Shown: positions 33,298-64,000 of the stretch, one piece after another
How positions within the stretch are numbered: the first letter of the stretch is position 1
Layout: every line of letters begins with the position of its first letter
Origin: Yuukianura sp. NJ FZ-2021
Lineage: Eukaryota
Reading direction: 5' to 3'
Assembly (NCBI GenBank): GCA_046563655.1
Contig: CM102289.1
Coordinates: forward strand, 2,976,001 to 3,040,000
DNA: 64,000 nucleotides
Position numbers and translations under genes: made by a program
Notes under the pieces: model-generated
Seen by the model: the letters and a program-made list of their open reading frames with translations, nothing else
Told to the model about the DNA's origin: nothing
Database searches by the model: none

Positions 33298-36200
33298 ATG
33301 ATGGGGACGCCTTTACTACTCATTGTCATAAGTACTACTCTTCCGATTCTCATTAGCGTCCTCCATGGAATCAACTACTACTGGGATTATGTACAATGGT
33401 TTTGGACGCCAGACGTATCTACACAACTTTTCGATTTCATTGTAGGTAAGTGCAGACTAATTTTGAAATGGCACATAAGGAGAATGTATTTTGGGAATAC
33501 ATGGGTGTGCTATGCGACCTTTTAAAAAGCTTGTAAAAGTTCTTCATGAAAGTTTTTCATTCAAGAGTTGGATAACAAATTTTGAACTCAATAAATTAAT
33601 AAATGGATAATAAATTTATTAATTGACTAAAGTTGGAGCTGGTAGCAGTGGTTCTGTGTTGGCCTACAGACTTGCTGTACAAAATTACAAGGTATTACTC
33701 ATTGAAGCTGGCGGCGATCCTATTCTACTTAACAAAATTCCTGGCATAGCCCTTGACCTCTTACGCTACAAGGAACATGACTGGAACTACAGGACAAAAA
33801 AGCGGGATAACGTGGGGCTCAGTCACACTAATCAGGTTAAACAAAATAAGAAACGATTTTTTTAACTTTCTATTGGCATACTATTATAATCCCATTGAAA
33901 TATGCAGGTTGCAAATGTTCACACGATACTGATGAATTTTTTTCATTGAAGGAAATGTATGCTAACCGTGGAAAAGTTCTTGGAGGAAGTAGTACTCTCA
34001 ACTACATGTTTTATATGCGAGGTCATCCACTCGACTACGACAACTGGGCTAACATTACTGGTGACACGAGCTGGAACTATGAAAATGTGTTGCCTTACTT
34101 CAAAAAATCTATCTATGATTACAGAGGCCACTTTCCAGAAAACAGTAGACACTAAAAGCATTTTTTCGACAACTTAAAATTTTGAATTGTTTCTTGAAAT
34201 AGTTTGTTTTATTGGTATTTTCTGAAGAGCAGCAGTATGAAACTTCCCCGTATGGATTCTTGACCATTGATAAAATCAGGTTTGGGAAAATGATCGACTC
34301 GTTTTTCGGTGCGGGAGAGGAGCTTGGTTACACAAGAAATATTGACGCCAACGGGCCACAAGTTGAAGGTATTCAAGAACAAAATTCTAATTTTTTTTCA
34401 GTAAACGTTTTTTTTGGAGTTTGGTTAAAAAGCTTTTTTTCCAAAATATTTTTATATGGTTGATATAAATTGGGTTTTGTTTTTTAAAGGCCTTGGTATG
34501 GTAGAGTCGACTCAAAGGAATGGAGAACGTGTTTCAGCATACGACGTAATTGAGCAAAACAAAAATTCTTTGCCGAATCTAGTCGTTTCCAAGTATTCAC
34601 ATGCTTCCAAGGCAAGTTTATTTTTTCTATACTTTTTGGGCTTGACAATTATAAGTAGTTCAACTTAGAGAAAAACCGTAAATATTTTTGTATTCAAAAA
34701 TTACTTTTTAAAAGAAAAGAGTAGCGGATCTCGACTTGGTCAAAGGCATAAATGTCGTAGTAAGGTGAAGACAAAAAATTGTAAACTTTGTTTGTGAAGA
34801 TGAATCCTAATTATGTTGCAGATCCAGTTGGATAAACATGGAAATGCAGTAGCTGTTGATTTCTATCGACATGGAATAAAGTACACAGCAAAAGCATCCA
34901 AAGAAATTGTTGTCAGCGCAGGCGCTTTCGACACTCCTAAGCTCCTCATGCTTTCAGGCATTGGTCCAAAGAAGCAATTACAGTCGCAGAAGGTGTAAAT
35001 GTCATACAAAATTGTTAAAAAATTGAAACTTGTTTGCTTTGTTTCAGATCAAGGTCAAAGTTGACTTGCCAGTGGGCCAAAATTTGCAGGACCACTTCGG
35101 CGTTTTGGTACTACCGTTTACGACAAACGCCGGTACTTCGTTTTTTCTTGAACGTGACCTGGGATTAGGTTCTTTTTTGGAATATTTTACAACATCGTCA
35201 GGTAAAAATCAATTTGAAAAAAAATTCCGCTTTACCACTGTTCATGATTAACGTTAGTTTTGTGTTTCTAAGGACATCTTTTTATTCGTAGGAATATTGA
35301 CTTCTCCAACTGGCGTTACTGCACAATTCTTTCAGTCGTCCCCGAAAGTAGGTAATCGTAAATGGGCAGATATTCAGACGTACTTGATTCCTGTGTCGCC
35401 TTCGAAAGTATTGGCGGAGTCATTTGGCAGGGCGCTGAGCATTAAGCACGAAATATTCTCAGAATTTATGGATCCAGCTGAGGGCAATGACGGATTCACC
35501 TTGTTAACAATTTTGGTTAGACCAAAAAGTCGCGGTGAAGTCACACTCAGAAACAAAGATCACATGTCAGATCCAGTGATTGGTAAACAACTAGACTACT
35601 ATAAACTAAACTACTTGAATTTGACGCATCTCAAGTGTAAATCGTTTATCGTTTTCAAAGATCAAAATCCATTTTCTCATCCTGACGACATCGAGGCATT
35701 GACTTTTGGTAAAAAATTGAAAATATCCGCCGTACAAATTAAAAGCAAAAAAATTTTTATAAATAGCAAGTGACTAAAAATATATTCCAGGGATTCGTAA
35801 CGCCTTGAAGCTTGTAGAGACGAAGAGTTTCCAGAAAATAGGAGCTAAGTTCAAAGGTCCTCACTTTTCTGCGTGTAAATCGGAACAGTTCGGAAGCGAT
35901 TCCTATTGGGGTTGTTACATTAAGCACGTAACTCTCAACGCATGGTATGCAGTAATTACGTATAATTAGTACTTTTGTTATTTGTTTTACTATTTCCATT
36001 TTATCTAAAAACTACTGTAGGCATCCGGTTGGTACATGCAAAATGTCACACAAGGACGATCCGACTGCTGTAGTTGATCCTAAGCTTAGGCGAGTCTCAA
36101 ACTGCCATAGACATTTTACATTTGTGGCAAACTAAACCAAAAAATGAAGTTGATTTTTCTAGAATTCTTTCCAATTTTAATTTTTTTTATGGAAGTTGGT

Positions 36201-36438
36201 GAATTTTGTTTGTGTTCGCAGAGTGCTGGGGGTAAAGTCTCTTCGTGTCGTTGATGCGTCTGTGATGCCAGTCATTGTGAACGCAAATACAAACGCCCCA
36301 TGTATTATGCTCGGTGAAAAGGGGGCCGATTTTATTTTGGAACATTGGGCAGAACAGTCGCTCGTTTGCCCACATATGCTCCTAGGCCCAGACCCTAACA
36401 AATGCTACTACGCATCTCGGAGACGGAATTTTATTTGA
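33298..36438 (+). CDS. GMC oxidoreductase (glucose dehydrogenase/alcohol oxidase family), many exons
   Basis: 'FDFIVVGAGSSG' FAD motif, '[14 protein letters not shown]', 'LMLSGIGP', 'GQNLQDH', 'HPVGTCKM', 'LRVVDAS', 'NTNAP'. Confidence 0.95.
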
Positions 36439-37269: not shown

Positions 37270-40200
37270 TCAAGTAAAAATTTTGTTCTTTTTGGATTTT
37301 TCGTGTTCCTGTTTTACGGAATTCAACAAGCGTCGTCGAAATAACTCTTGTGGTGAAAAGGAATTTATAGCTTCAATTCCCGGTAGGTTTTTAAGAGTTT
37401 TCTTACTGTAGTCCCTGTGAAGAGCTCGGTTCCATTCGTTGCCCAAAGAATGAAACGCAAACACATTTGATTGTCCAGTCTCTGCATCTGCGTAGATTGG
37501 AAATAACGGTCTCATTAAATCATCATCCAAGTCTTCAAATGCAGCGTCCCTCCACTCCGTAAATTCAACGACTTCAAATTCAATGCCCAACTCCGCCCCA
37601 ATTTCTTTTGCGTCTTGCTGAGTAATTTCTTTGACGTTGATGAGATTGTACACACCAGTTTCACTTTCGCTGTTACAGAAAATTTCGGCGCAAATACGCG
37701 CACAAATATTGACAGGGAATACCGGAATTCCTCCAGAATGAACAAGGTTTGGAAATTTCCTTAATCTGATACAAGTTGAAATCAGGGTCCAGACGTGATC
37801 GAATCCTCTATTGGGTATTCCCGTGACGGAACTCGCATACAAAAATGGAATTCGTAAAAGCGTGACTGGAAGTCCGGCTTCAGCAGCTTGTTGCAGCAAT
37901 GCCTCACAAATGCTTTTGGACTGAAGATACCCATTTTGTATTTTTTCAAAGGAATTCAGTGGTAGCCAACGTTCTGGGATGGTCCCGTCTGCATCCAGTT
38001 CCGTCACACATAACAAAGCCGATGGATAAATGATATGTTTAAGTCGTCCATCCGTACAGAATCTGAGGATGCGCAGAAGGCCCTTGACATTGACAGATCT
38101 CATGTCATACCCAGAACCGTCATAGTAACTCTCAATATGATTGACCTTTGCACCACAATGGACAACTGCGTCAACTTGTTGAGTTAACAAATCGTATTTT
38201 TCCTGCGGCAATCCAAGCAGGTCATGACAAACGTCTCCAGCAATCACAGAAATTTGGTTAAAGTTGACCTCTCCCAAGAGGTCATAATATGCCAGAGTTT
38301 TCTGAAGAATATCTCGTGCAGTTTCATCAGAAGCTGCTCGAACCAAACAAAATATGTTGATTTCCTTATCCATTTTCTGAATTTCTGGAAGAACGTGCGC
38401 GCCAAAGTGACCAGTCCCGCCGGTCAGCAATATTGATTTAAAATCTCTCTTGACTACGGTTTGCGCGGAGACAATTGCAAAATTTTCTCTCATTTCGCAC
38501 GGTAAAATTGAGTCCGATTTCAAAACTTCACTCTGGTCCAGCTGAGCAGTTGTCTGCGGATCCTGGTCAGTCGCTAGAACTCGGGCCAAATATGACGATA
38601 ATTTTCGAATAGTTCGATTCTCCTGAATTGCACTGATTGGCAGGTTACGAGCGGTTAATTTTTCTAAACGTGTTTTCATTTCCATCGCCATCAGAGAATC
38701 CACTCCCATTTCGCTCAGTGGCTGATCAATGTCCAGAACTTCGTCTTTTGGAAGCCTCAATGTTTCTTTGATAATGGACTCGAGGAACGCCTGAAGTTTT
38801 TCTTGTCGTAGACTTGGGTCACAACCTTTGATGAGCTCAATTTCCTTTTGCATTTCTGCTAATCTGTCTACATCTTCTTTTTGAATTTCCACTTCATCCC
38901 AGTAATGATGACCCAAGGAAAAAAAAGTTTTCATTATTTTCCAACCGCGCGTTGGAACGAATCCTATTTGGGGCATCTCAGTATTCATCATTTGTTCTAG
39001 TGCCATCAAACCCTCGGAAACTGGAAAGCCTTTGAGCCCAACTCTGTTTTCTTGATCGTTCGTGATCCCACGTCCTGCTCCAATTCCCTTCCTGATTAAA
39101 AAAAAACGATGTTACCTATTGTGTACGAAAATACGCTTTGACGTTTTTCTCACGCTATTTGCGTTTTTTGTTTTGAATGTTTGGTAGTTTTGCAACAGTT
39201 GAACAACAACCAGAAAAAGTCCATCACTAGTAACATATAACAGAAGCTACATGTGTAACACCCGAGATGGCGTTCTACCCTTGCCAATATTCAAAGTAAC
39301 CTTTTCCTACTTAACAGTTAGATTCAGAAAAAAAAATATTTTGCAGGAAATGCCAGTAAAAAACTACAGGAAGGTGAAAGTTGCATTGAAAGTTATGCTT
39401 CAAAATAAATTTTTACCACAATCCCCAGTTGATGCTCGTTGCAGGAAAGCCCATTGAGTGACGATACCAAGCGAATCCGTCCAAGTACTTGTTTGCAGTT
39501 GTGTGCGGCGCTTGACCGATACTGCCAAACAGTGACGCTCCTGAAGAAAATAAAACGAAAAACTCCAAATCCATGTGGAGGGTGTGCCTATGCAAATTCC
39601 ATGCGCCGTGGGCTTTTGGAGCAATTGAAGCATGCAATGTCTCCCAACTTTGCGTTTCAAATGCCGCGTCGTGGAGTACGCCAGCGGCATGGAAAATTCC
39701 CTTTAGCGGTGGTAAGGTTTCGGACTCTTCAACTGTGCGAAACAGCCTGTCGCAATCTTCTTTGTTTGAAATGTCCAAATTTAAAACCAGTATATTGAAT
39801 CCTTTCGTTCTCAAATCATCAACAACGGCCTGCGCCTGCGTTGAAGCTGCAGTTCTACCCACTAAAACAATGTTTGAAGCTCCCTTGATTGTCATCCATT
39901 TTGTCAATTCAATTCCTATTCCTCCGAGCCCACCAGTAATAAGATACGTAGAATAGGAGTTGAACATCTGATAAGAGTGAAACAGTGAGCCATTCTGCAC
40001 TTCTGTTGTCGGCATCCGCAAAACTACTTTTCCGATTTGTTTAGCTTCTTGAAGGTAGTAAAAAGCAGTCTGAATATTTTCCAAAGAAAAGACTTTACAC
40101 GGTAGTGTTGGAAAGCTGTCTCCGAATTCTTGTTCCATTTTGTGCATGATGTCAGGAAAATCGCCCTGTCCCATAAAATCAAGCCCCACCAGCTCGATAA

Positions 40201-43200
40201 ACTTGTATTCAACGTCTGGACGCTGCTGGCTCACCTCCTCAGTTGTCCAAATGTTCATTTTGGCTAATTCAACAAATCTGCCGTTAAGTGCAGTGGCTGA
40301 AAGAGAGGCTTCCTTGAATCCTGGTCCAGTGAGACAGTTTAGCACAATGTCTACCCCTTGTCCATTTGTGTCATCCAATATTTGTTGTCCAAAGTGAGTG
40401 TTTCTTGAGTTGTAAACATGTGTGATTCCGTAAATTTGTTCCAAAAATCTACGTTTTCGTTTTGATCCAACCGTAGCAAAAATTCGGCCTCCACATTTCT
40501 TTACAAGGTCAATAGCTGCAAGACCCACGCCGCCAGATCCAGCATGAATTAGGACCCGTTCGCCTGGTTGTAATTTTGCAATATGATGCAATGCGTAGTG
40601 TGCGGTCAAATACACGATTGGGCATGCAGCGGCAGACTCAAATGAAATTCCTTTTGGTTTTTTCCACAACCCCAGTTCCGAAGAAACCGTGTGACTCGCG
40701 ATGGCGCCATTGATAGAGACCCCGACAACCTCATCTCCAACTTGATAGCGAGTAACTTTCGTGCCTACTCGTGTAACGACTCCGGAAACATCAAGCCCAA
40801 CATGGTCCAAATGCTCTTTTGGAATTTCAAATTCTTTTGGTTTGAGTACACAAAATATGTCTTTGAAGTTGAGTGCACAGGCTCTAACCGCTACTTCAAC
40901 GTCGTTCTCCCTTAGATCACTAGCCGTGTCCGGATCAATCTTAATATCAGCGAAGTAGCCACTCGCTGGGTTTATAAACCGATACCGTTCGCAGTTCGGA
41001 AGTTTTACTCTGGTACGTTGCGGTATCGAGTCGACAAATCGCAGCACGTACGTCCTTTTACCTCGAAATACCGTCGCTTCCTCGGCCTTTGGACTAAACA
41101 AGGTTGCAAACAGTTGACTTCCTTCGTCTTCCGCTTCCACTTGTCCAAAGTCTATGAGAAATGGATCGTGTTTTGGATATTCATTGCGAAAGGCCCTCAC
41201 AAGTCCCCACAATGCTGCTTTTTTTGGATTTGGAATTTCGTCATCTCCAATTACAAACGCTCCGCGGGTTACAATTCGAATTTTGGCATGCTTCGCTGTG
41301 TGTGTGTCGGCGTAAGTTTTGAGCAACTGCAGGAGGCTACCGATATATTTTTCTTCTTCACCGGTCAATTCACTGTCGTCATTTCGTGTCCAGAAGAATA
41401 TAATTCCTTCCATATTGCCGTCTAGCAGCACAACTTTTGGAACGCAATCTTCGACACTATATCGTGTCACATTTCTGTTTGACTCTTGAAGCAAGTCGAC
41501 GACACTTGCAGCCAATGAATCTTGGTCCGACACCAATATCCAGTTAGGCTTTGAATATTGTTCACAACTTAGTGCAGTATTATTAGGCAACAACTGCGTG
41601 TTTGATTTGGTAGCTACAACTACCCCGTTGGGGTATGCGGCCTCGATTGTTGTAATATTTTGAAATCCAGTATTTTTCAAAAGTTCCCGCCATTTATCAG
41701 AGGATATGACTGGTGTAACGCTTCCTGCCTCCTTTCTGAAATCGCTGAATCTCCACCAACCTTCCAATAACCCAAATACCAACTCGATATTTTCAATAAT
41801 TCCAAACGACTCAGCAAAAATTAAACGACCCCCAGGTCGCAGAAGCACTCTCAAGTTCTGTAGCGTTTCTACCAAATTTCTCGTTGCATGCAGTACTTGA
41901 CTTGCTAAAATTACATCAAATGATTCTGGCAAATACCCTTGTGGTAGTGGATCTTGCTCAATGTCGAGAGTTTGGAAAACAACTTCAGTGTAGCTTGAAA
42001 ATGTTTTCTTCGCCGTTTCGACAAGAAATGGTGAAATGTCTGTAAACGTGTATTCAAACTGGACGGAGGTCGACTTAAACTGCGAAATTATCATTTGAGT
42101 AATCATACCACTTCCGCCTCCTACCTCTAAAATTTCAAGTGTAATCAAATTCTTTTCGCTGGGACTAATTGGTTGATTATGCTCGTCGGTGTAGTCCGAC
42201 ATCGGCATCACTAAACTATTAACAGTTTGCATCAAACAGTCCATAGCTAGTTCACATTGAAGCCTGTAAGTCAATTCCTCGTTGTAGTATGCAATTGCGC
42301 CAAGTTTCGACGTGTCTGCGGGGAAGTGGTATTCGATGGGTGACATTCTACCACTTAACACAAGTGGTAGTTCGTCGTAGAATTTTTTCAGCCATCGACA
42401 ACTGAATCTTACTTCGTCATGTTTATATGACCTAGCAAGCAGATCTGCGATAGTTGCATCGATATTTGAAGGCGATTCTAGTTGTTTCAGTGCGTAGTAT
42501 CCCGAACCTACCGAAATTGGAACACTTTGAATGTATCCTTCTTTCTGAAGCTTGTACAGATAGTAGTCAACAACTTGTGCTGGAACATTTTCAGGAATTC
42601 GACTTGTCCAATCTTCGCGGTTAAGCACCAATCCCACCTTAAAACAACAATATAGATTACAATTTATTTTGCTGCAAGTATTCACTGTGTATAACGTTTA
42701 AAACCAATTACAAAACCTAACTTCAAACAGCTTGTATATTGTGTATGTTCACGAGTTATCTTATTTTGCTAACCTGATACGGCCAACTACAAAGTTGAAT
42801 TGCGTTAATAATTGACAAAATTCCGAACTTGTGAAAACTCTCATCCGAATGATTGATGTCGTGAACCCGTTGCAGGCCACTCAAAGCTGTTTGCAGTTTG
42901 TCAGATTGTTTTGATACGTTGCAGAAATTTTTGATAACATTCGATGCCTTGGGAGTAAAACTCGGAATTGGGCGCCAAACTTCGGCTGAAAAATTCATAT
43001 TGTTTGGGACTTGATGTTCAATGGAGTTCAACACAGTTTCAGCTGTAGTTTCAATTAGTTCCACTCCCTTTAGCTCAAGTAGTACATTTCCATTTTCGTT
43101 TATCAAAAACACAGCATGGTCGTCGTCGTTCTTATCTGGGAAGCAATAACTGTATAGTGTAGGTGTGAAAGTTTCTGAAAACCACGTGATTTGCTCTATT

Positions 43201-46200: not shown

Positions 46201-46988
46201 TAAGTTAACGCCACCCGCAATTGCAAGAGAAGATTCTCCATTCAAAAGGCTTTGACAGGCCAAATGTATTGCGCCAAGCGACGAAGAGCACCCAGATTCA
46301 AGAGCAATTGCTGGGCCTAAGCGACATAAAAATTGAACGAATTAAAATTAGTAAATAAAATTACAAATTAAAAAGGTTAAAAAAAACTAATTAAAACATT
46401 ATAAATAAAACTTTTTTGTGTACCGTGGAGACCAAGGTAGTAGGACACTCGTGATGCAGTTGCGCTGAAAGCATTTCCGAAGTAGCGGTGGAACAGATCA
46501 TTCGCATCCCGCGTCGTTGTGTGCAGAATTCTGTCGTAATCTGGTTGCCAGATTCCTGTAAAAACTCCCGTAGACGTTCCTCTTAGTTCGTGAGCGTTGA
46601 TTCCTGCATCTTCCAAGCTTTCCCATGCCACTTCCAGAAGAAGCCTCTGCTGAGGATCAATCAACGGAGCCTCTCTCGGGCTAATTCCAAAAAAATTTGC
46701 ATCGAATTCATCCACGCGGCATTTCAAAAATCCCGCCTTGATGTCCGATTCCAATCCAAATCGATTTTTGGCTTCCCGCACTCTTTCTTCCGGAAATGGC
46801 CGAATGGCATCCTCACCAGAGCAAAGCACTTCCCAAAATTCTTGTGGGTTGTTTGCACCCGGAAATCTACAGCTCATTCCTACTACTGCAATTGCATCTC
46901 TCAGCACGTCTTGCTCGACAATTGCGTTGTCTATGACATTGCTATTGGGCAGCATGCCAGTACCAGAAACAGCATTCCAAGAACCCAT
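37270..46988 (-). CDS. Highly reducing type I polyketide synthase: KS-AT-DH-cMT-ER-KR-ACP-thioester reductase (~3000 aa, ~6 exons)
   Basis: KS 'DPQQRLLLE', 'ESGCSSS', 'HGTGT', 'NIGH'. AT 'GHSLG' and 'HAFHS'. DH 'HKVAG..VYP'. MT 'LEVGGGSG' and 'VLHAT'. ER 'LIHAGSGGVG'. KR 'ITGGLGGIG'. ACP 'GVDSL'. R domain 'LTGGTGHFG' and 'GYLQSK'. GT-AG introns present. Confidence 0.95.
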
Positions 46989-49626
46989 TTCGCCTACTTG
47001 AAAGAGAGTTGAAAACTTGAATCAAACAAAATTCAATTTTAAAAATTTAGGTTTGAAAAAAAAATGATGTCTGATGTGTGATGTTTGAAAACTTGATATT
47101 TTAAAAACGCTGTGTTTGCCCGTACGTTGATCTTCTACAAATCAAAGGTTTAAAAGTATCCGTTAAGAACTGAGAGTTTTGGGTGGGCAGGCGCAGATTT
47201 TATACAAAACGATTCTGTTTGCAACCACCAACAATAAAAATTATTCGCACGATTAAGATAATTTTAATTATGAAAACTGGATTTCCTATTTAGAAGGACT
47301 TCGAGCACTCACAGAGTATGTATTTATTACATTTTTTTGCTGTAATTACGAAAAATGTTTTTCTGGGAATCCAGAGTTTACATCTTTTCCAGTGGTTCTA
47401 GTTTCTGAAATTTTTAAATGGATTATTATTACACCACATGTTTTAAAGAGTGTAGCCTTATTTTTTGAAATTACAATATTTTACTTTATTTTGTAATTTG
47501 AATGTATGCGAATTCTTTACGGATATCGTTTTACCGATGCATAACCTAAATTGACGGCCGAACATAAGAAAAAACAAAATACGAAATTCCAAGCTATTAT
47601 GTCTTATGTCTCACGACTAGTGACTTCATGAATTTTTGCTAATTTTTATCAATCTAAGTGTTTCAGCTGGAGACTGACAACAAACGGGCGAGACTAATTT
47701 GTATACTACGAATCCACCCACGTACTCGTCGTATTCTCAAAGGTTGTACTTAAGTGTTTCCATATACTATGGCAACAACTCCTGCAACTTGAAAAGTTAG
47801 TAACGGATTCAACTTGTTTAATAGCGTAGGTCATTTAAATGCAGATTGGAAGTACAAAATGTGGTAGAAGAGGATAGCATACTGATCGTTTAAGCAACAT
47901 ACGATAGAGTTTAGTTGTGTCTAGGAAATATGCTGCTTTGGATTTGCTCCATTTTCACAGATTCCAGTATACATCATATGCTTTTTGGATTGCAATTAGC
48001 ATAAGTTACATGGCCATGGAAGGAATCGGTTTGGCTTAGAAGCTTTACTAAATATGGTTAATGCTGCTGTGATGCTAAGATCAAACTGGAACGACGCTAC
48101 AGAAAGTATTGACGCTTTATGCTTTAGAATTTATGATAAAACATATGAAGGTTAACGGGCATTCGAAGGTGATGGGAATGGGAAATAATAATTGCGCAAA
48201 ACAAGGAAAATTTTCAACAACACAATTAGCAATATATTGTACATGTTTTGGTCAACGTTTCCAAGTTTTCACATACTTGCGGATGTTTATTCGACGAAGG
48301 TTGTAGAAAATTAGTAGAAGCCGGATTCGAGAAAATGATAACTTTTTATTATTATTAACTTTCACACGGTTTACCTCTGAATTAAATGTTTCCCGCACAA
48401 TTTTTCACAAATGATAAAGCAATAACCTGTCAAGTCTTTTATAGAAAAGAAAATGATAATAAAGTATTATACTCTATTATAATTAGTACAATCAATTAAC
48501 TTTAAATCGAGTCATTATACCTTTTCAATTCAACATTTGCAATGTACGGCAAACCTTGTGAGGGGAAGAAGGGGTTAACCGAAGATGGTTCATTTTTTGT
48601 TTTCAGTATTTTTTTTTTTGGTTTCGAATGTATTAATAGTTAGTAGTGTTTTTTGGAATCGAATTTAAAAATTTGGAGTTTTAGGATATTATTTTTGTAG
48701 AAAAATTTTCCGAAAATGAAGTACGTGGTTTCCACTTTAGAGTTACTTTTCAAATTTTTATGAAACTGAACATTCCATATACACAGGTTACGACATTCTC
48801 CCATGTATTTTTTTTTGCACTCAAATCGAATATGTTTTCCAAATTCTGTTTTCCCCAAATTTGTACGTTTGGAATTAGATGTATTAATACATTGAACTAA
48901 CGAGTGTAATTTCCCAAAATATAAGTTCAAGGATGTTGTTAAGAGTTTAAGAGATGTTTTATTCCATTATAATAAGAAACAACGTATGAGAAAAAAAACA
49001 ACTTACAATACGTAACCATAAAATTTATTATTTAACGTGGAAAAACAAAAACAAATTTATTAATTTATTTTCTAACCAAAATTAATGATTAGAAAAACAG
49101 AAAACAAATACTTTTGTTGAAGCTATTGATGGGAGCAACTGATTTCAACTTTTTTTCTCATTTATTTAGCGTAGCGTAGTTTCATTCATTGTGTTTAATT
49201 TCACGGAGAATATTGCGGAAAATTTGTTGGTGAAGGAGGTTACTACAAATCAGAAAGCAGAACTCATTTCTCACGCACTAAAATGCCAATTTTAGTCTTC
49301 TGGAAACGAATATCTATGATTTGCAGAAGAAGACTATTACTACGGCTTCGTCCGTCTGCATGCCACATTTGTTTGGACTTGTTGAACTCAAACATCAGCC
49401 AATTCCCTAGACAAACAGCCCCCTTCCCATGGCGGTATGTGTACATTACGGTGAAGAGCGCACTTTCACAAAGTAAAGCAGGGCCGTCATTTTTCAATAC
49501 AACGCACTTTCTAACAAATTGCATAAAAATGAACTAAGTTTTGAACCGTTCTGACATTGGGTCTGACGCCGCTGTTAAATTGAAACAGAGCAAACTCTTC
49601 AGCGTGACCCTTCAATAGGTATTACC

Positions 49627-49913
49627 CAAGCTGGGTGAACAAGAGGTTAAGCATTAACTCGGTTTTTATATTTCTACACCCAAAATTTCAAAAATGAAAA
49701 GTCATCACGACTGGTCTCGTTTCCTTGGAAATTTTAAATAACTTAATTTTATGGTTTACCTTCCAACTTAAATTTGGTGCAAAATTTCAAACTTTTTACT
49801 AAAAAAAAGATCAACAAGTTCAGAGTAAAAAGTTGTTTGCTGCGACATTTTTGGAAAACAGGACTTATTGCTTAACCTCTTAAAGCATCACAATGGTTGC
49901 TATAGCAACCTTG
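49627..49913. mobile_element. Second copy of the CAAG...CTTG MITE family seen at 19939-20221
   Basis: Colinear similarity along its length (gaacaagaggtt..., ctcgtttccttggaaatttt, catttttggaaaac.ggacttattgc.taacctcttaaa, gcaaccttg). Degenerate GGTATT-containing flanks. Confidence 0.8.
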
Positions 49914-50877
49914 GGTATTGTCCATACAGTGTATAGCTGGATTCAAATTTTTGTTTTTAAAATTTTTGACTTGTATTAGCAAGGTGCACGTACAACCCTG
50001 CACATTGGGCACTAAACTTAACAAATTGTGCCTTTGCCTCAACCTTTAGCCTCAGCGTCACCTAAAATTTAGTGCATTCAGTCCCCTGCTTGCTTTCGCT
50101 GGATATTATTATTTGTGCATAATTGTGCATACATGTACTTACATGTTGAGCAACGAGTACGCGCTGACAACTATGTGCAGCTGTTTCTAAAATTGCTGTT
50201 CATACTTTTGGACCAATATGTACACCTTTGGGACAATTCTGAATTGTGATCAACTTTCAATACTTCGAACCTGTACGGTTCAGCACTAAAAACTCCACCA
50301 GATTATTGCAGATATCTCGAGCCCGACAGCTAGAACATGATTTTTGTTTAATTCTTGCACACAAACTATGCCGGCAATTCTACACTGCAAATTTTGCGCG
50401 GCATTTGAAGTAATATGTAAATTGCCAATTCAAGGTAATGCAGAAAGACAATCGGAACCCTCTAATTTTCTACTCTTTCGAAACACCTATCCAAGAACCC
50501 TTGAGCATACCCATGCATACCAGCCGTACCTTGTTTTTTTTTCATATAATTATGCAAAACCGTAGTAGTAAGAAATTACTTCCATACATCATGATTTACT
50601 TTTTCGTCGTAACTTTTAGGGACGCCATAACAACACTCTAATTGCAAAACATCCATCTTGAAAAAGAATGATACCATCTTCGCCAACCTTGAATAAATAA
50701 TTCTATACCAACGCTTATGCCAATTCAGTTTGCTCAGTTGAGCTTATTTGTTTAACACAGTACATGACTGGGTTTATTCTGGGTAGCAAGTATTACAAAA
50801 CAAGGAGCTGTAAAAAAAAATCCGCTATTATACTTTACTTTTACTCTCACTTTCCAATAACTTTTTTCCGAATTGCA

Positions 50878-53800
50878 ATGATTATCAAAAAACTGGTCCT
50901 CAATTTTCTGGCATTTCCGCCCTTTCTCTTGTTTTTAGTGATTGTATTTCCATTTCTAGCTGTCCTTTGGTTACACCGTATCATCGTCACTTTAATTTTG
51001 AAACCGCTGTTTCGGAGAGACTTGAAAGAGGCCAATTCTGGGATTGAACTTATTTACTCCTTTGAAAAGTATTGGAATGGAACGCGAGAGGCGATTTCAA
51101 TGGTGAATGTCCTTCAAGGGACGCTGGATGTTGATAAAGTGAAACAACGGCTGATGGACGTGATTTTGTACAAACGACTCAGCAGTTGTGACGAAATTTT
51201 AAACTACGACCGTCTCACAACGCTCCACCCATTTAAGTGGATGGGTTTTGTATTTTGGAAGGTCAGTTCTGAAAAATTTGATTTAGAAAAGCACGTTTGT
51301 GTTATCGACGCAGACGCACATGTGGAAAATTTCAACGTCAATAACACACTGGTCGAATGGCTCAGAAGTCCGTTTCCGAAGGATCGTCCGGCTTGGAGTG
51401 CAATGATTATTCCAGGTATTTATGTAGTAAAATCCAAAGTTAAATTTATAGTAAACAGCCAAAATTGAAACAGTATACCATTGTTTTATTGCAGATTAGC
51501 ATTACGTTTATACCGGGCGTCCTAAAACTTAATGCACGCTTTCATCAAGGAGTAGGATTAGGAAATTATGCGCTTCTTCCGATTTTGGCAATTTCTATGC
51601 TTAGAGATCTACCTAAGAAACTTAATCAAGGGGTGATATCTGGTGCTGCATGATGGTCTAAAAGCAAATGTCAGATGTAACGATTTCCTAAGTCTATGCT
51701 TTGGTGAAGGCGGGCACTAAGTTTTCGGACACCCTGTAGTTAACTTGCATGTATTGTAGCATATATTTCGGATGTGTATACATCATATCCTATACATCTA
51801 TATCATACACACCTAGCTTATTTGTATGTTATACAGCCAATTTCAATTTCAATTTCAATTTATTCTGAAAGTTTCCTGCATTAGCAGGTTATTACACCTC
51901 AGTTAGGTAATCTAATTTAAAATTAATATTATATTTAAAGTTATTGTGTTCTCGGCTAAGTTTAAGATTATCGTAAAATTTTAAAAGAGTGATGTGTGAG
52001 ACCTGGGGAAAAGCAAACAAGCAACACCTTAAAACTATGGAAAAGGTTATTCGTTCCGCGGGAAGATTTGTACTCAACGTGAAGAAATTTGATCCAGTGA
52101 AAGCGAAGGTTACGACCGAATTGAACTGGCTCTTTCCCAAACACCTAACTGATTACCGTACTACATTATTAGTTTCGACTATCATCTCAGGAAACTGCCC
52201 AAAGTACTTTATAAATTACTTCAGCGAAGTCCAGTCTACTCAATCAAGCACAACTACTAGAAAGAAAACTCATGTAGCAAATTTAAACCGGAAAATTCAT
52301 CCTCAATCCTTTAAATCAAGTGGTTTTCGCAAGTGGATGGAGACGGAAGAGGATGTACGACGTCTTACCAATCCAATTGCAATAAAAATGAAGCTTAAGG
52401 AACATTTTATGAAAGCTCAACACAATGAACTCGGACGCCGAAATGATGTTGAGGAAGAGGATTGACAACTGAATATGCATCTTAATAATACGTAAAAATA
52501 CTTATTTTAGCAACGAAAGATTTAAAGTAAAATAATTATAAGTAATTCATCCTATATCACAAATTTTAAAAAAAAACAGATTTATACAACATTTAAAAAA
52601 AAATACCATTTAGAAACTCCACTTCTCAACAATAATCCTAGTAACTATTAATATACGCACCTTTTTTTTTTTTTTAAAATACAACTGATACATTTACGCT
52701 AAACATATTGGCTAATATTAATTACAAGCTATAAAACTATCATTAATACTTATTCTGAAAAGCCTGCCAGAAACAGGAGAATAAATGAAATGAAATGAAA
52801 TGAAAGTGATGAATGTATAGATAGATTAGATGTTTTAAGGTGAAAATTTAGACGGCTAGTTAAGTAGGTGATGATTGTGAGTCGATTCTGTTTGTATTTT
52901 GTACATTAAATAATTCTATTTGTTTGTTTAGGAAAAATTTCAAAAAATTAGTTTTAGCCTTAATTGAAACGCAGCAATTACTGAAGACAAGATGTTGTAG
53001 ATCACTAAGGGGTCCAAAAACGTAATGCACGCTTTCATCAAGGAGTAGGATTAGGAAATTGTGCGCACCTCGTACGCTTCTTGCAATTTTGGCAATTTTT
53101 ATGCTTAGAGCTATACCTAAGAAAGTTAATCAAGGTGTGATATCTGGTGCTGCATGATGGTCTAAAAGCAAATGTCAGGTGTAACGATTTCCTAAGTCTA
53201 TGCTTTGGTGAGGCGGGCACTAAGTTTTCGGACACTCTGTAGGTAATTTACATGTATTGTAGCATATATTTCGGATGTGTATTATATACTATACATCATA
53301 TCCTATACATCTATATCATACACACCTAGCTTATTTGTATGTTATACAGCCATACCACATGCATCTATATAGTATATTTTGTATGTCGTAAATGTATGTT
53401 TTACACAATAATTAGTATATTTGTATAAAATTCAAGTAGATTACATCCATATGATGATTAAAATTTGTTGTTCAGGTTATAAAAATGAGCAGGGACAAGA
53501 GAAGTCGCTCGTTGCGTTCCGAGTTCATCACGTGGTATCTGACGGTTACTCAATGGTAGACTTTATCGGACGACTCTACGATGAACCACACTACAGCAAT
53601 GCACATACTCGAACACTCAATGTCTACGTTGACATCATTCAGCAATTATTTTGGTCACCACTTACCGTATTCAGCCTAGTAAACACTTACGTCGTCAAAA
53701 CCGTTGCGGCAATTTTCGCCTCGTCACTCAAGAATTGGCTTCGAAACAACAAAAGCTCAAATGAACGGCAAACAATGACTTTGATCACAACGCATTTTGA

Positions 53801-54668
53801 CCTCAATGAACTCAAAGCTCTCCGGAAAAGTTTAAGTAAAAACTTTAAAAAACAAGTTACATTTGCTACGCTGATTTGGTTCCTATTGGCTGGAGCCCTT
53901 CGAAGGTTGTACCTCAGTGGCCAATTTGATGCTACCAAAGCAAAAATGATTTCCCGCAAAGGACAACTCAAATTCAATGTTGGTTATGGTACGCCAATGC
54001 GCACACCTCATCCACTTCGCTCGTTTTCCAACCATTGGTGAAACCAATATATATTTTGCGTTACATTATATTATGAATATTGTATTCCTAATTAATTACT
54101 ATGTTTTTGTATAAATTCTAAAATTTTATTTACATAATTATGGTTACTAGGGCTATGAACAACTACAGTGTACCGTTTGGAGATGAAACAAGGGAGGAAC
54201 GACTACGTCAAATGGTCCAAACTTATTATTGGCGCGAAACTACAAAAATTAGTGACATGGATACCTGGTTACACGCAGTTGCAACAAATGTCATACCAAA
54301 TTCCTTCCTTTCAATGATTATTGAGGCAGCATCGCCTAGCGTGATTGGACTTACAAATCTTCCTGGATCACAAACGTTAGTTCACTTGTGTGGTGCTCAG
54401 GTGGAAGAAGTTTATGAACTAACTGGGTTACTCTACAAGCGATACAGTAAATTAAATCATTTAAAAAAAACGTGTAATCCATTTATAACAAAATAATTCT
54501 TGCTTCCTCAAAGGTTTTACACTTGGATGCTACTCATACCGTGATCAACTTGAAGTCACACTTTTGTCTGATGACGAAATCCTTAGTCACAATGCGTCTC
54601 AAATGTTGCTCAAAACCTACTTTCGTGAAGAAATTAACGAGCTGACTGCCAAGTACTTAAATCCTTAA
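50878..54668 (+). CDS. WS/DGAT-like (HHxxxDG) O-acyltransferase, 4 exons
   Basis: N-terminal TM, 'FDLEKHV', 'PFPKDRPAW', catalytic 'FRVHHVVSDGYS', 'FSNH', 'LTNLPG', 'YSYRDQL'. Confidence 0.8.
51513..51736. mobile_element. Tc1/mariner-type MITE (TA-flanked, CAGGGTGTCC-like TIR)
   Basis: ta|ccgggcgtcctaaaactt ... aagttttcggacaccctg|ta. A second copy lies at ~53005-53239. Confidence 0.75.
51985..52805 (+). mobile_element. 5'-truncated non-LTR retrotransposon (CR1/L2-like ORF2 C-terminus) with (TGAAA)n tail
   Basis: ORF 51989..52465 'CETWG...LNWL...CPKY' resembles the post-RT region of LINEs. Ends in aataaatgaaatgaaatgaaatgaaa. Confidence 0.7.
53005..53351. repeat. Direct duplicate of 51513-51838 (MITE plus ~100 bp of flank)
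   Basis: Near-identical sequence from aatgcacgctttcatcaagg to tttgtatgttatacagcc. Confidence 0.9.
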
Positions 54669-55518: not shown

Positions 55519-57889
55519 TTAAACTTCCTTCTGCTCAGATTGTTGACTTGCCCTAGTTTTGATGAGGACATTGAATGGAACAGGGTCAAGGTCAATCCCC
55601 TGTAAATACTCATCAATTGGTGGTCCAGTCACTGGGTCACAATGGAAACTGAATTCCTGGATCAGCGTGGCAGTAACCAAGATCATGCTTGTTTTGGCAA
55701 CTTGCTCTCCAATACAGCGGCGCTTACCTAAAAACCAAAGTTTACACATCGAAAATATTGACAGCTTTGACTGTTGCAGAGGCCAAAGTTCATCATGTTA
55801 ACTTACCCAAACCGAAAGAAAGAATTTTGTCTGTATTAACCAATGTTCCATCTTTTGAGATGAATCTTTCAGGCGAAAATTCATTTGGGTTAATCCAGAC
55901 TGATTCATCCATGTTTGCAGTCCAAACGTTTAAAAGGATTGATGCACCCTAGGCAAAATTAAAGCACACAGAAATTGTGTAAATCTTCGGATTTGAAACA
56001 ATTGATTTCTAAATTTTAAAATTAACTGTAAATAATCTGACCTTTGGAATTCTGTAAGGGCCATATTCCCAATCTTGCAGCAACTTTCTGGGTATCAGCG
56101 GTAAAACTCTTGCCATTCTAGCAAATTTGGAAATCATATTTTAAGAATTATAACAGAAAAAAATTGTTGCTTACAATTATAATTAACCAGTAGAAAAGTA
56201 GACTTGAATTAAAAAAATTCAATCAAAAAATAGTGATAAAAATTTTTAGTTAAACGTATCACCTGTACAACTCGTACAGCGTTGCTTGGAGGTAAACCAA
56301 ACTGAAATTCCAAAAATATACGAATTGTGCAAAAAAATTAGAATACGGAGAAAAAATGTCTTTTTAGTACTTGGCAGTATCGTCAACATTGACGCGTCTA
56401 TTAGTTCCAATGACCCTGTCAACCTCATCTTGTAATTTGACCTGTACTCGTGGGTTGTATATCAGGTAACGAATCAAAAATTTCATTGTATGGGACTGTG
56501 TATCCGTTCCTGCAATGGCAATGTCTTGTAATACTGCGATCAAATTCGCCTCTGAAAGTAGCATAATAAAACGAACAAAATTGATAACATATTATATAAT
56601 AATTTCAGTTGAATTTACAGATTATTTGAATATTTGCGTAATATTTTAATTATATTCTACTATTCATCAGAAAACAAGTAAAAAAACCTACCTGTATAGA
56701 TTTCTAATGGATCCTCGGCAGGATTCGTAGAAGTATCCACCTTTTGCAAAAATTCTTGCAAGAAACTTTGCGGACTCTGCAAATATTCCCCTTGCTTCCT
56801 CACTTCATTTAGCACTTCCTATTCAACCAACATTGCGACGTTAATTCTCCTAACCGTCGCTTCGAAAGAGTTCTTTTCAATTTCAAAAAAAAATTCGTAA
56901 CCTAATGCAAATTGCGCTCTTATCTTTATGTAAGTATCAGCTTCACATTCTAAGAAAAACTTGTCTACCTCGTAGCTTTTTTTCCACGCCCGGTAATGTT
57001 TTTGCAAGTTTGCAAATCCCGTCCATTTCGGGAATATGCGCAGAAGTTTTGGACATATTTTGTCAATTCCAGCTCCAAATTGAATCGACTGGGCGACTGT
57101 GTGCATCGCTTCGAGGAGACGACGCGTTGTGTTGTCATCTGCTTCATACTTTTTACCCGTGAGAATTGTCCATGCAATGTTGAAAAATACTGGGTCGAGT
57201 TGGTTGCGCAATGTCAAGGTCGTTTGACCTTTGACCATACGTTGCTTGATTTCTTCACAAAAATCAACTGCCTCTTCTACCACAATAGATTCCATTTTAG
57301 ATTTAGTACTGAATCCATACTTGCGAAGAATCCGATGAGAGTAGGCACGAGTTTCAGCCCAAACGTCAGGCATAGAGAATATCAATCCTAATACAATAAA
57401 TTAGAATTATAAAATAAACCAGTGTATAACAAAGTTATAATTATTGTAGGATATCATATTTAGTAAAAATTACCCAAAGCCTTTCCCTCTGTTTTCTCCA
57501 GAATCAAAGTATCATTTTCATCTGATCGACTCAGAAGCGCTTCAGTGGCAATAGCTTTCACAATTTCTTGATGACTGTTCAGAACTACAACTAAAAACGG
57601 AAAACCATAGGTCGCTGTTAATTAGTTTATCATACAAATCGCTATAGATTTTTTCTCATCACTTACCAATGAAACTAGGTCCCAACTTTATGGAAAAGAT
57701 AGATCCATATTTTTTGGCAAACTTTTCAAATGCAATGGCGGGTTTCCTAGGATCAGCCCAAATCAAAGAAATGAGCGAACCAATAAGCGGGAAAGACAGC
57801 GGACCCGGAGGCAACTTTTCCTTTGACTTTCTCCGAGTTACGAGCAGAAGAAAAATCAAAATTGCAACGCCACTCAACCAAATTAACAT
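55519..57889 (-). CDS. Cytochrome P450, CYP2-clan-like, multi-exon
   Basis: N-terminal anchor plus 'LPPGP', 'WAETR', I-helix 'AGTDT', 'ELYR', 'PERF', heme motif 'FGLGKRRCIG' split by an intron. Confidence 0.94.
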
Positions 57890-63553: not shown

Positions 63554-64000
63554 TTACTTTTTCTTTCTAGTCATGTCAATTTTTGGTTTTGCTTTTGAAA
63601 TGAACTGCAAAATCGCTTTGAACAAAAGCAGCAAAGCTTTGTATAGAATGCAGATTATGACAACCAGAGTTGCTGAAAGGAAACCAATCACATCCAAAGA
63701 ATAGTACTGAAAAAAGTTCAAATCTCTGGCGGCTGAGCGTAAATGGTGTGCACCTAAGTAAAAGTGCAAAATGAACGTCAAACGTCGTCATTTTATACAC
63801 GCACAAAGAAATCGTACAACTGATGATAGTTTTCTACTGACCTTTGTGTCTTATTACGTATTCGGACCAAAACACTGCACGATCCAGAGGATGATTTGGT
63901 TGGTCCTGGAAAGTTTTTGAAACAGCCAACGCTCTTTCCTTGTAACTAAAATGAGAAACGTTGCCACATAAATTGTACAATTTTTCTCTTCATGTAGCCG
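63554..64000 (-). CDS. UDP-glycosyltransferase, 3' exons (gene continues beyond window)
   Basis: '[38 protein letters not shown]', then a TM helix and a KKK ER-retention tail. Confidence 0.92.

Follow-up and report, generated by a model that had tools for sequence, protein, structure and literature searches.

Four adjoining enzyme genes and their surroundings

Within the 64,000-nucleotide stretch of the Yuukianura sp. genome analysed here (hereafter the window), four intact, intron-bearing enzyme genes adjoin each other from position 33298, the ATG of a GMC oxidoreductase gene, to position 57889, that of a P450 gene on the minus strand. Between them lie genes for a polyketide synthase (PKS) and for an acyltransferase with an HHxxxDG motif (Table 1). 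The first-pass annotation had proposed the same bounds and the same four consecutive enzyme genes, and all were recovered where it had placed them, with open coding sequences and with Pfam signatures and motifs that agree with their proposed identities. The GMC and PKS genes are tail to tail (831 nt from stop to stop), as are the acyltransferase and P450 genes (850 nt), whereas the PKS and acyltransferase genes are head to head, with 3889 nt between their ATGs, which matches the divergent arrangement across ~3.9 kb described earlier. The claim that no recognisable gene intervenes was also borne out, as none of 44 ORFs of at least 45 residues from between the genes and from the long intron reached the Pfam threshold, the only row being a sub-threshold one, DUF6452 (16.5 bits for a cutoff of 27.1).

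The gene models were built with frame-keeping GT/GC..AG junctions picked by motif continuity, and the PKS exon 4/5 junction was additionally compared with a relative (P0001); the models are RNA-unsupported, and their junctions could be wrong by a few nucleotides. Together they comprise 4653 codons with neither frameshift nor internal stop, and every motif checked is intact. GC3 is similar across the genes (0.39 for the PKS, 0.41-0.44 for its neighbours). Exact contigs of run X1 bridge the GMC-PKS (36000-37399), PKS-acyltransferase (46827-51090, a Logan contig, except for a short replaced stretch) and acyltransferase-P450 (54611-55999) gaps, which argues against an assembly chimera, with the caveat that X1 may be the source sample and its contigs are then not independent of the assembly. 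The neighbourhood is a genuine part of an animal genome. The region upstream of both the PKS and acyltransferase genes is long and harbours a high-copy repeat at about 49340-50006, where contig depth peaks in all four runs; it is not a compact bidirectional promoter, a point that counts against joint function.

Table 1. Features of the window, with positions counted from its first letter
Feature	Position	Strand	Description
MFS/Sugar_tr exons	1423-2432		SLC22-like
GMC (FAD) oxidoreductase gene	33298..36438	+	12 exons, 636 aa, hydrophobic N-terminus
Type I fully reducing PKS gene	37270..46988 (46988-37270)	-	6 exons, 2991 aa
PKS exons 1-3	45750..46988 (46424-46988, 46085-46316, 45750-45985)	-	Most of ketosynthase
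PKS exon 4	42774..45673	-	KS end, KS-AT linker, acyltransferase, dehydratase
PKS exon 5	39417..42637	-	C-methyltransferase, enoylreductase, ketoreductase
PKS exon 6	37270..39091	-	Acyl carrier protein and terminal thioester reductase (R)
Divergent intergenic region	46989..50877	.	3889 nt between PKS and acyltransferase ATGs; ORFs without Pfam match
HHxxxDG (WS/DGAT-like) acyltransferase gene	50878..54668	+	4 exons, 516 aa
Acyltransferase exons	50878-51415, 53476-54037, 54151-54446, 54514-54668	+	
Acyltransferase intron 1	51416..53475	+	2060 nt, transposon-like insert between direct repeats
Microsomal-type (CYP2-like) P450 gene	55519..57889 (57889-55519)	-	9 exons, 510 aa
UDPGT C-terminal exon	63557-63787	-	5.7 kb past P450

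The UGT announced ~6 kb beyond the P450 gene corresponds to the UDPGT exon, and the SLC22 transporter to the MFS/Sugar_tr exons. The lipocalins, on the other hand, could not be confirmed in the window, their sole trace being a sub-threshold Lipocalin_2 match at 9778-10053 (E 0.029). The stretch between the P450 gene and the UDPGT exon contains a CBM_14 gene and an ankyrin exon. ORFs and fragments of 7tm_1 GPCRs form a tandem array from 10.9 to 32.0 kb of the window.

Domains and motifs of the four enzymes

The PKS displays the domain order KS-AT-DH-cMT-ER-KR-ACP-R, and its five introns, all GT-AG, are 76-325 nt long. Exons 1-3 match ketoacyl-synt (6.2e-46 and 4.1e-18) and Ketoacyl-synt_C (1.5e-13), with the active-site Cys in GCSSS at residue 197 and HGTGT at 338. 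Exon 4 matches Acyl_transf_1 (9.3e-52), PKS_DH_N and PS-DH (1.9e-15), and harbours NIGH (373), GHSLG (639), HAFH (745), HKVAGLMVYP (964) and DSLFQ (1138). Signatures of exon 5 are Methyltransf_12 (1.9e-20), ADH_zinc_N (1.1e-17) and KR (1.2e-59), with LEVGGGSG, GSGGVG and GGLGGIG at 1481, 2011 and 2213, and those of exon 6 are PP-binding (2.8e-13) and NAD_binding_4 (4.7e-45), with GVDS, TGGTGHFG and YLQSK at 2514, 2608 and 2773. No catalytic motif that we checked by reading the translation and placing it in the spliced model is missing. Among solved structures, the R domain is closest to the alcohol-forming MxaA from the assembly line for myxalamid (PDB 4u7w; 119 bits, roughly 30% identity across some 310 residues), with the TGxTGxxG nucleotide loop, the Ser/Thr and YxxxK all in register; the window R domain may yield an aldehyde or an alcohol. 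MxaA terminates an NRPS module in a myxobacterium. Pfam, motifs and this alignment uphold the earlier description of the PKS: it is fully reducing, it has a C-methyltransferase, and its terminal thioester reductase is redox-competent.

The acyltransferase has a hydrophobic N-terminal segment and the sequence HHVVSDG at residue 197. Its Pfam matches are weak (AATase, 0.012; WS_DGAT_C, 0.014 and 0.14), with its own exons under both WS/DGAT cutoffs, and its best PDB profile match, WSD (7nxg), is non-significant (E 0.063). The C-terminal exons of three relatives exceed the WS_DGAT_C cutoff of 20.7 bits (29.1, 23.7 and 24.5 bits), and the Atlas clusters closest to the acyltransferase itself are WS_DGAT_cat ones (0.93 and 0.92). 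The protein shares the HHxxxDG motif with WS/DGAT wax-ester synthases (PF03007/PF06974; WSD) but differs from them by its N-terminal hydrophobic anchor and its sub-cutoff scores. The motif announced by the first-pass annotation is therefore present, but the protein appears to be assignable to WS/DGAT at the superfamily level only. Among 1.84 billion representatives, an acyltransferase exon retrieved only eight fragment-like, eukaryote-like relatives; the relatives' fragments stop at the same exon boundary. With no bacterial member among 11 matches, the family appears to be very small, eukaryote-only and WS/DGAT-like. The direct repeats in intron 1 (51571-51839 and 53075-53352) are 94-100% identical and 1.5 kb apart.

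The GMC coding sequence is intact, with two GC-AG introns; its exon ORFs match NAD_binding_8, GMC_oxred_N (4.6e-13) and GMC_oxred_C (2e-8), and GAGSSG, HPVGTCKM and NANTNAP are found at residues 51, 543 and 585. Five P450 exon ORFs match the Pfam p450 signature, and the K-helix exon was identified by reading the DNA. The P450 motifs are PPGP (27), AGTDT (309), ELYR (366), PERF (420) and FGLGKRRCIG (439), and the only PDB matches of the largest exon are to CYP2B4 (E 1.6e-4).

Relationships to known systems

The best solved relative of the KS-AT-DH part of the PKS is CurL (346 bits, with mycocerosic acid synthase, MAS, at 221), and that of the modifying DH-ER-KR region is MAS (318 bits, compared with 215 for animal FAS, 179 for EcPKS1 and 125 for EcPKS2). 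EcPKS1 and EcPKS2 are absent from the best 60 of 103 KS-AT-DH matches. In these sequence comparisons, the PKS is nearest to bacterial MAS/Cur-type synthases, with fungal HR-PKSs, animal FAS and mollusc FAS-like PKSs more distant. One relative shares about 50% identity with it, and the others among the matches listed are bacterial, at about 30%. Its five spliceosomal introns and neighbour-like GC3 mark it as a long-resident animal gene. Both the PKS and the acyltransferase genes are rare and lineage-restricted.

Table 2 of PMC4604110 gives the order KS-AT-DH-MT-ADH(ER)-KR-ACP for sea-urchin Pks1 and five lancelet genes, one of them with an N-terminal AMP domain, and that paper places animal PKSs closer to MAS-like microbial PKSs than to animal FAS. 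The window PKS resembles them in its order through ACP, its single module, its introns and its animal setting, and it likewise appears nearer to MAS-like PKSs than to animal FAS. However, it ends in a thioester reductase, whereas none appears in the table, where one lancelet gene has an unnamed extra terminal domain. The table stars sea-urchin Pks1 at KR, whereas the KR motifs of the window PKS are intact; the likeness is one of architecture.

The first-pass annotation had called the locus fungal-style. This holds for its layout, an iterative HR-PKS with cMT beside acyltransferase, P450 and oxidase genes as in LovB-type clusters, but not for its sequences, as the neighbours are animal-type and LovB reaches 144-150 bits versus 318-346 for MAS and CurL. 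Fungal trans-acyltransferases such as LovD have a different fold. MAS, as predicted for the window PKS, is an iterative, fully reducing maker of methyl-branched lipid chains, and MAS/PapA5 follows the same pairing logic of a PKS with a CAT-superfamily HHxxxDG acyltransferase, PapA5 being the partner of mycobacterial MAS. Branches made by MAS come from methylmalonyl-CoA, and MAS lacks cMT and R, whereas the window PKS has an HAFH-type AT, a cMT and reductive release. MAS belongs to a bacterial operon, unlike these intron-containing animal genes, and the window acyltransferase, unlike PapA, is probably membrane-anchored and closer to WS/DGAT.

A putative pathway and its alternatives

The favoured reading, to which we give slightly less than an even chance, is that the four-gene locus functions, if only in part, as a biosynthetic unit. 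The PKS-acyltransferase pair is most likely to be a true partnership, the P450 and GMC enzymes being less certain members; a single pathway for all four genes is suggested by adjacency and chemical plausibility. The rarity of the PKS and acyltransferase genes counts in favour of this reading, as does the retention of both, at 5-12% divergence, in run X4, from a second, related organism, whose short contigs do not join the two genes. The analysis shows intact genes, their domains, their catalytic motifs and their adjacency; from these we infer the substrates, the product, the order of the steps and the action of the neighbours on the PKS product. The single-module, iterative PKS would make a saturated chain from malonyl units, as suggested by the HAFH signature of its AT, which as a rule denotes malonyl specificity, and its C-methyltransferase would install methyl branches from SAM. 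Using NAD(P)H, the R domain would then free the ACP-bound chain, either as an aldehyde or, through a further reduction step like that of MxaA, as a primary alcohol. The membrane-anchored, divergently transcribed acyltransferase might esterify this alcohol with an acyl-CoA, yielding a wax-ester-like product, or alternatively transfer an acyl chain to another hydroxyl acceptor. The microsomal P450 might hydroxylate the chain, and the GMC flavoenzyme, with its hydrophobic N-terminal leader, could interconvert alcohol and aldehyde.

It is nearly as probable that the genes are coincidental neighbours, the PKS working alone, like other animal PKSs, amid unrelated, lineage-specific and fast-duplicating 'environmental response' genes (P450, GMC, UGT, MFS, chemoreceptor-like GPCRs). 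P450s, GMC enzymes, UGTs and MFS transporters are large, fast-evolving families that often co-locate; chance adjacency is therefore realistic, all the more so as the window also contains the GPCR tandem array, MFS exons and a UDPGT exon. At the only other loci found to hold acyltransferase relatives (three loci with paralogues 27-36% identical; one metagenome, another animal), PKS, P450 or GMC genes are present in none of the flanks of 0.1-9 kb; the adjoining genes there are for CRAL_TRIO/GOLD, for an ammonium transporter together with a receptor kinase, and for trehalase. Mollusc AFPKs (EcPKS1/2), which like the window PKS are animal-encoded, single-module makers of lipid-like polyketides, are reported in the available parts of PMC12833800 as unclustered with tailoring genes, and known animal PKS pathways are described there as unclustered. 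Against coincidence, the chemistry of all three nearest neighbours suits a reductively released polyketide, and the closest of them, head to head with the PKS, belongs to a very rare acyltransferase family rather than to a big detoxification family. Moreover, P450, GMC and UGT genes are not tandemly duplicated in the window, whereas detoxification arrays usually show such duplication.

It is improbable that at least one gene is recently dead or silent, with no pathway from this locus and possibly a more active paralogous copy elsewhere. Second PKS and acyltransferase copies, 10-14% diverged, occur in runs of the same sample. A diverged second acyltransferase copy, seen in runs X1, X2 and X4, has a 76-nt intron in place of the 2 kb transposon-bearing one, and the GMC model requires its two GC-AG introns; however, the four reading frames and the checked motifs are intact, and the transposon-like insertion sits within an intron. 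A bacterial cluster acquired whole, or bacterial contamination, is very improbable and already largely refuted. In its favour, bacteria supply the nearest PKS relatives among both solved structures and Atlas clusters (the latter including actinomycete ones, 0.95-0.98). Against it, all four genes have spliceosomal introns, PKS GC3 is close to that of its neighbours, and the PKS is only 27-42% identical to 77 bacterial loci versus 48-51% to the eukaryote-like fragment P0001. At none of these 77 loci did tblastn (E<=1e-5) find an acyltransferase, P450 or GMC relative within 10 kb. In addition, the P450 has a PPGP hinge and resembles CYP2 enzymes, none of the 11 matches of the acyltransferase family is bacterial, and the locus is flanked by 7tm_1 GPCRs and by CBM_14.

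The available parts of PMC12833800 describe clustering or 'bundling' of genes for some animal pathways, which we count in favour of partial co-function. As in those examples (sponge oroidin, terpene, NRPS), animal-type enzyme genes surround a core gene; the bundles are backed by cross-species synteny and enzyme assays, whereas the window locus is known from the sequence of one genome. Its core enzyme is a PKS, unlike in the named bundles, and the literature searched yielded no clustered animal example with a PKS as the core enzyme. We regard the locus as a plausible biosynthetic cluster and a promising, though as yet unproven, candidate for a natural-product gene cluster of the rare animal-encoded kind.

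Four adjacent enzyme genes and their surroundings

Genes for a GMC oxidoreductase, a type I polyketide synthase (PKS), an acyltransferase with an HHxxxDG motif and a cytochrome P450 lie within 24.6 kb on alternating strands. To build their splice models, frame-keeping GT/GC..AG introns were enumerated, and those restoring conserved motifs were chosen; the junctions are predictions from genomic sequence alone, and individual positions could be a few bases out. The GMC model required two GC-AG introns, because no in-frame GT donor allowed the motifs to be restored. The presence of two such introns in one gene is unusual.

Genes and other features of the locus (positions within the window)
Feature	Position	Strand	Description
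GMC oxidoreductase	33298-36438	+	12 exons, 636 aa, complete CDS without internal stop
Type I PKS	46988-37270	-	6 exons, 2991 aa, complete CDS without internal stop
HHxxxDG acyltransferase	50878-54668	+	4 exons, 516 aa, complete CDS without internal stop
Cytochrome P450	57889-55519	-	9 exons, 510 aa, complete CDS without internal stop
GC-AG introns of the GMC gene	34612-34821; 36090-36221		donors GCAAGT and GCGAGT
Intron 1 of the acyltransferase gene	51416-53475		2 kb
Direct repeats in that intron	51571-51839; 53075-53352		94-100% identical
ORF of the intron insert	51977-52462		162 aa, no Pfam match
High-copy repeats	49340-50006; 54676-55342		contig depth 5-10x that of the surroundings in each of the four runs
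7tm_1 GPCR tandem array	10900-32010	both	ORFs and fragments
Intact-looking GPCR ORFs	27707-28774; 29557-30591		intronless
CBM_14 gene	58310-59554	-	single exon, 415 aa

The intergenic distances are 831 nt between the GMC and PKS genes (tail to tail), 3889 nt between the PKS and acyltransferase genes (head to head) and 850 nt between the acyltransferase and P450 genes (tail to tail). None of the 44 ORFs of at least 45 aa taken from the intergenic stretches, the long intron and beyond the outer genes scored above any Pfam family threshold. Contigs of sequencing run X1, with 0 or 2 differences from the window, span all three junctions (36000-37399, 46827-51090 and 54611-55999); they show the consistency of the assembly, not its independent confirmation, as the window may itself derive from X1. 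The first-pass annotation had described the four genes as adjacent, with no recognisable gene between them, which is upheld by the spacer analysis and by the contigs across the junctions. The ends that it gave to the cluster coincide exactly with the ATG codons of the GMC and P450 genes.

Motifs and Pfam likewise bear out the earlier identification of the two outer genes. The GMC enzyme has a hydrophobic leader, the FAD loop GAGSSG at residue 51 and the C-terminal His region HPVGTCKM at 543, with matches to GMC_oxred_N (4.6e-13) and GMC_oxred_C (2e-8). The P450 displays an N-terminal anchor with a PPGP hinge (27), AGTDT (309), ELYR (366), PERF (420) and the heme-binding FGLGKRRCIG (439), and five of its exons match the Pfam p450 family. 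Its assignment to a CYP2-like clan is tentative, since CYP2B4 accounts for the sole PDB matches of its largest exon (E 1.6e-4).

Upstream of the four genes is a tandem array of rhodopsin-family GPCR sequences, in which two ORFs look intact and many of the remaining ones are broken into pieces of 60-190 aa, which suggests pseudogenes or intron-bearing copies. Directly past the P450 gene, a CBM_14 gene (2.4e-13) with a below-threshold GH18 match (17.6 bits, cutoff 29.6) may encode a chitinase-like lectin. Ankyrin and UDPGT exons were also found in the flanks (126 of 222 ORFs scanned). Contigs of runs X3 and X4 connect position 48833 with 55130, so that one repeat family is present on both sides of the acyltransferase gene.

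Architecture, affinity and origin of the polyketide synthase

Pfam domains of the PKS follow the order ketosynthase (KS), acyltransferase (AT), dehydratase (DH), methyltransferase, enoylreductase (ER), ketoreductase (KR), ACP and NAD_binding_4 reductase (R). By the established catalytic motifs of such enzymes, the Cys-His-His triad of the KS is complete in the spliced protein (GCSSS 197, HGTGT 338, NIGH 373; ketoacyl-synt 6.2e-46), the AT has its active-site Ser in GHSLG at 639 (Acyl_transf_1 9.3e-52), and the ACP carries the phosphopantetheine Ser in GVDS at 2514 (PP-binding 2.8e-13). The AT also harbours HAFH at 745, which we take to point to malonyl-CoA as the probable extender. The reducing loop is complete by motif, with HKVAGLMVYP (964) and DSLFQ (1138) in the DH, GSGGVG (2011) in the ER and GGLGGIG (2213) in the KR, and is supported by the Pfam signatures PS-DH, ADH_zinc_N and KR (1.2e-59). 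A putatively active C-methyltransferase (cMT) is represented by Methyltransf_12 (1.9e-20) and the SAM motif LEVGGGSG at 1481, and its region matches those of CurJ and LovB in solved structures. In the R domain (NAD_binding_4 4.7e-45; motifs TGGTGHFG and YLQSK), the closest solved match is MxaA, the terminal reductase of myxalamid, at 119 bits. The nucleotide loop, the Ser/Thr and the YxxxK align in register with it, and the domain therefore looks redox-competent. The sequence thus describes a complete iterative PKS of the fully reducing type, with methyltransferase and reductase.

Ranked by score, which is not a phylogeny, the KS-AT-DH exon is closest among solved structures to cyanobacterial CurL (346 bits), then to the erythromycin modules (~245-255) and mycocerosic acid synthase (MAS; 221), with Dictyostelium Pks16 (182) and LovB (144) lower; neither animal FAS nor the mollusc EcPKS enzymes figure in the 60 best of its 103 matches. 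The MT-ER-KR exon ranks MAS first (318 bits), followed by animal FAS (215), EcPKS1 (179), LovB (150, MT region only) and EcPKS2 (125). In a search for homologous proteins, the ACP-R exon gave no match at the very strict threshold of E<=1e-30. Atlas neighbours of the PKS are bacterial PKS clusters, and a search of longer proteins with exon 4 returned multi-module bacterial PKSs; among the matches listed, only one was close, P0001, a eukaryote-like PKS fragment from a JGI data set. An identity of the AFPK or animal-FAS type was rejected, as FAS and EcPKS score below MAS and CurL, and so was a fungal HR-PKS of the LovB type, whose 144-150 bits are far under the bacterial matches. The description 'fungal-style' given at first pass thus holds for the layout, in that the fungal HR-PKS cluster is the nearest analogy to the four-gene neighbourhood, but not for the PKS sequence, which is nearer to bacterial MAS and CurL than to LovB.

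Animal PKSs have been reported to group near microbial PKSs and separately from animal FAS (Hojo et al., PMC4604110). In Table 2 of that paper, sea-urchin Pks1 and five lancelet genes have the order KS-AT-DH-MT-ADH-KR-ACP, preceded in one lancelet gene by an AMP domain at the N-terminus; many vertebrate entries there bear automatic names of the type mycocerosic or phthioceranic acid synthase-like. The present enzyme appears to fit this published animal PKS group. It differs in its terminal reductase, a domain that the animal PKS table of the same paper does not list. We regard it as a new member of the animal PKS class already known, set apart by its unusual terminal reductase.

The gene is interrupted by five GT-AG introns of 76-325 nt, and its GC3 is 0.39 compared with 0.41-0.44 in its neighbours and two nearby GPCR ORFs. 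The protein shares 48-51% identity with P0001, which is encoded on a 13.8 kb contig, and 27-42% with the 77 best loci of a prokaryote genome scan (at least 617 stretches matched; 612 relatives; best 80 kept, yielding the 77 loci). No relatives of the acyltransferase, P450 or GMC genes were detected within 10 kb at any of these 77 loci (tblastn E<=1e-5, 28 queries). A reductase-type match was present at 7 of the 77, a single match across MT to KR at 12, and both together at none. Assignment of the locus to an animal is based on the 7tm_1 GPCR arrays, the CBM_14 gene, the CYP2-like P450 and the spliceosomal introns. The introns, the GC3, the identity to P0001, the low identity to bacterial loci, the absence of co-neighbours at the 77 loci and the animal-type flanking genes together make bacterial contamination or transfer of the whole cluster from bacteria very unlikely; on these features, the PKS is a resident animal gene.

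Two of the 77 loci (L014 and L018) are on Parachlamydiales MAG contigs, with best-segment identities to the PKS of 42%, the highest of all 77, and 37%. As Parachlamydiales are symbionts of eukaryotes, a eukaryote-related origin of these two genes is conceivable.

The acyltransferase family and its copies

The N-terminal segment of the acyltransferase is hydrophobic, and HHVVSDG stands at residue 197; the R, HH, D and G of the HHxxxDG motif are invariant in all nine aligned sequences. Against 1.84 billion representative proteins, its exon 2 found 11 matches at E<=0.001. Eight are fragments of 169-333 aa with 29-41% identity, and the other three are giant NRPSs aligned over just 25-35 residues around the motif. 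The eight fragments stop at the same '...NHW' position as exon 2 in the window, which marks an exon boundary conserved within a eukaryotic gene family. Exon 2 had no match among longer proteins. The family appears to be undescribed, none of its members being named in a cluster look-up of nine proteins.

The first-pass annotation had named this enzyme an HHxxxDG acyltransferase and drawn on WS/DGAT chemistry for its role. Exon by exon, its Pfam matches are weak (AATase E 0.012; WS_DGAT_C E 0.014 and 0.14, i.e. 15.9 and 12.6 bits for a cutoff of 20.7; no match to WS_DGAT_cat), and the best PDB match of an exon-2 alignment profile, the WSD structure 7nxg, is weak as well (E 0.063). Yet the clusters closest to it by Atlas features are of the WS_DGAT_cat family (0.93 and 0.92), and its relatives point the same way, with WS_DGAT_cat in three of nine exon sequences (best E 0.022) and WS_DGAT_C above the same cutoff in three C-terminal exons of metagenome loci L002 and L003 (29.1, 23.7 and 24.5 bits). 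An AlphaFold2 model of the exon-2 alignment was of low confidence (mean pLDDT 50.3). The motif, the Atlas neighbours and the exons of relatives speak for a WS/DGAT-type identity, but the window's own exons remain below the Pfam cutoffs. We propose to call the enzyme WS/DGAT-like within the CAT/condensation superfamily, rather than a proven WS/DGAT.

The first intron of the gene owes its length to an insert bracketed by direct repeats, and the ORF within the insert looks transposon-derived.

A metagenome scan for relatives yielded 224 pattern matches and three confirmed loci in a single data set (L001-L003). Exons 1-2 are present at all three and exons 3-4 at two; the introns measure ~45-60 nt. 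At none of the three did the 28 queries reveal a PKS, P450 or GMC match within the available flanks of 0.1-9 kb; the neighbours (77 of 100 ORFs scanned) are a CRAL_TRIO/GOLD gene, an ammonium transporter with an Ig/tyrosine-kinase receptor, and a trehalase. This argues weakly against an obligatory linkage of the family with PKSs and has little bearing on the orthologue, because the three loci hold paralogues of 27-36% identity with short flanks. L002 harbours two family genes in tandem (36-662 and 1399-3125). With L001 and L003, this makes at least four copies at three loci, and the family is therefore multi-copy in that animal. No related loci were found in viral contigs.

Contigs of run X4, which represents a second, related organism, are 5-12% diverged from the window and cover parts of the PKS (37432-38256, 39758-41086 and 44189-45532) and acyltransferase (50624-51422 and 53651-54666) genes, and both genes are thus conserved in that organism; with lengths of ~0.6-1.2 kb, these contigs are too short to show linkage. 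Over positions 37400-54700, those of the runs X1-X4 that come from the probable source sample also contain extra PKS and acyltransferase copies that are 10-14% diverged, including an acyltransferase copy whose intron has 76 nt where the window has 2 kb. They could be paralogues or old duplicates of the entire block, or belong to a second genome in the sample; if the whole block was duplicated, they would bear on linkage.

A shared pathway or a chance neighbourhood

If the four enzymes act together, the PKS would extend its chain with malonyl units, add methyl branches from SAM, reduce fully in most cycles and release the chain in an NAD(P)H-dependent step, either as an aldehyde or as a primary alcohol. 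The alcohol could then be esterified by the membrane-bound HHxxxDG enzyme, the P450 might contribute a hydroxylation, and the GMC enzyme might oxidise the alcohol or aldehyde. Mycobacterial MAS with its CAT-superfamily transferase is presumably the nearest working analogy to the PKS-acyltransferase pair.

We give slightly less than even odds to the PKS acting in one pathway with one or more of its neighbours, the acyltransferase being the likeliest partner. That the genes are together purely by chance, in a region of fast-evolving enzyme and receptor genes, is a serious possibility too, which we would nevertheless not call probable: P450, GMC and UGT genes tend to cluster anyway, and the window was chosen by the first-pass annotation for its apt neighbours, but all three nearest neighbours are chemically apt, and the one that is head to head with the PKS belongs to a very rare family, a combination that chance is unlikely to produce. 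The extension of a shared pathway to all four genes is doubtful. We likewise consider it rather unlikely that this is a true animal-encoded PKS cluster, in which a long-resident MAS-like PKS would have recruited three animal-type tailoring genes to make a methyl-branched polyketide alcohol together with an ester or oxidised products derived from it, for defence or as a pheromone or surface lipid. These estimates of co-function and coincidence are informal reasoning rather than computed values. The locus is a sound, testable lead, not a demonstrated cluster.

Animal PKS genes are widespread, with most products unknown, and authors in the field hold that their function is not yet predictable (PMC11414698). 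Finding such pathways in animals is difficult, since the tailoring genes as a rule do not adjoin the core gene. According to PMC12833800, no clustering has so far been seen for mollusc FAS-like PKSs, and the genes of the nemamide pathway are dispersed; the clusters or 'bundles' that it describes in animals concern terpenes, sponge alkaloids and one NRPS-like pathway. The NRPS/PKS clusters of bdelloid rotifers, presented as horizontally acquired (PMC11258130), are of a different kind from the present locus. A limited term search of the open-access literature found no animal PKS beside a WS/DGAT-like acyltransferase, a P450 and a GMC oxidase; supplements such as that of PMC12833800 on other animal bundles could contain a similar locus.

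Should the genes prove unconnected, the PKS would be a further member of the known animal class, distinguished by its terminal reductase. If the cluster is real, tailoring enzymes clustered around a PKS would be described for the first time in an animal, the small WS/DGAT-like acyltransferase family would gain its first functional handle, and four cDNAs would make up a ready-made testable pathway.
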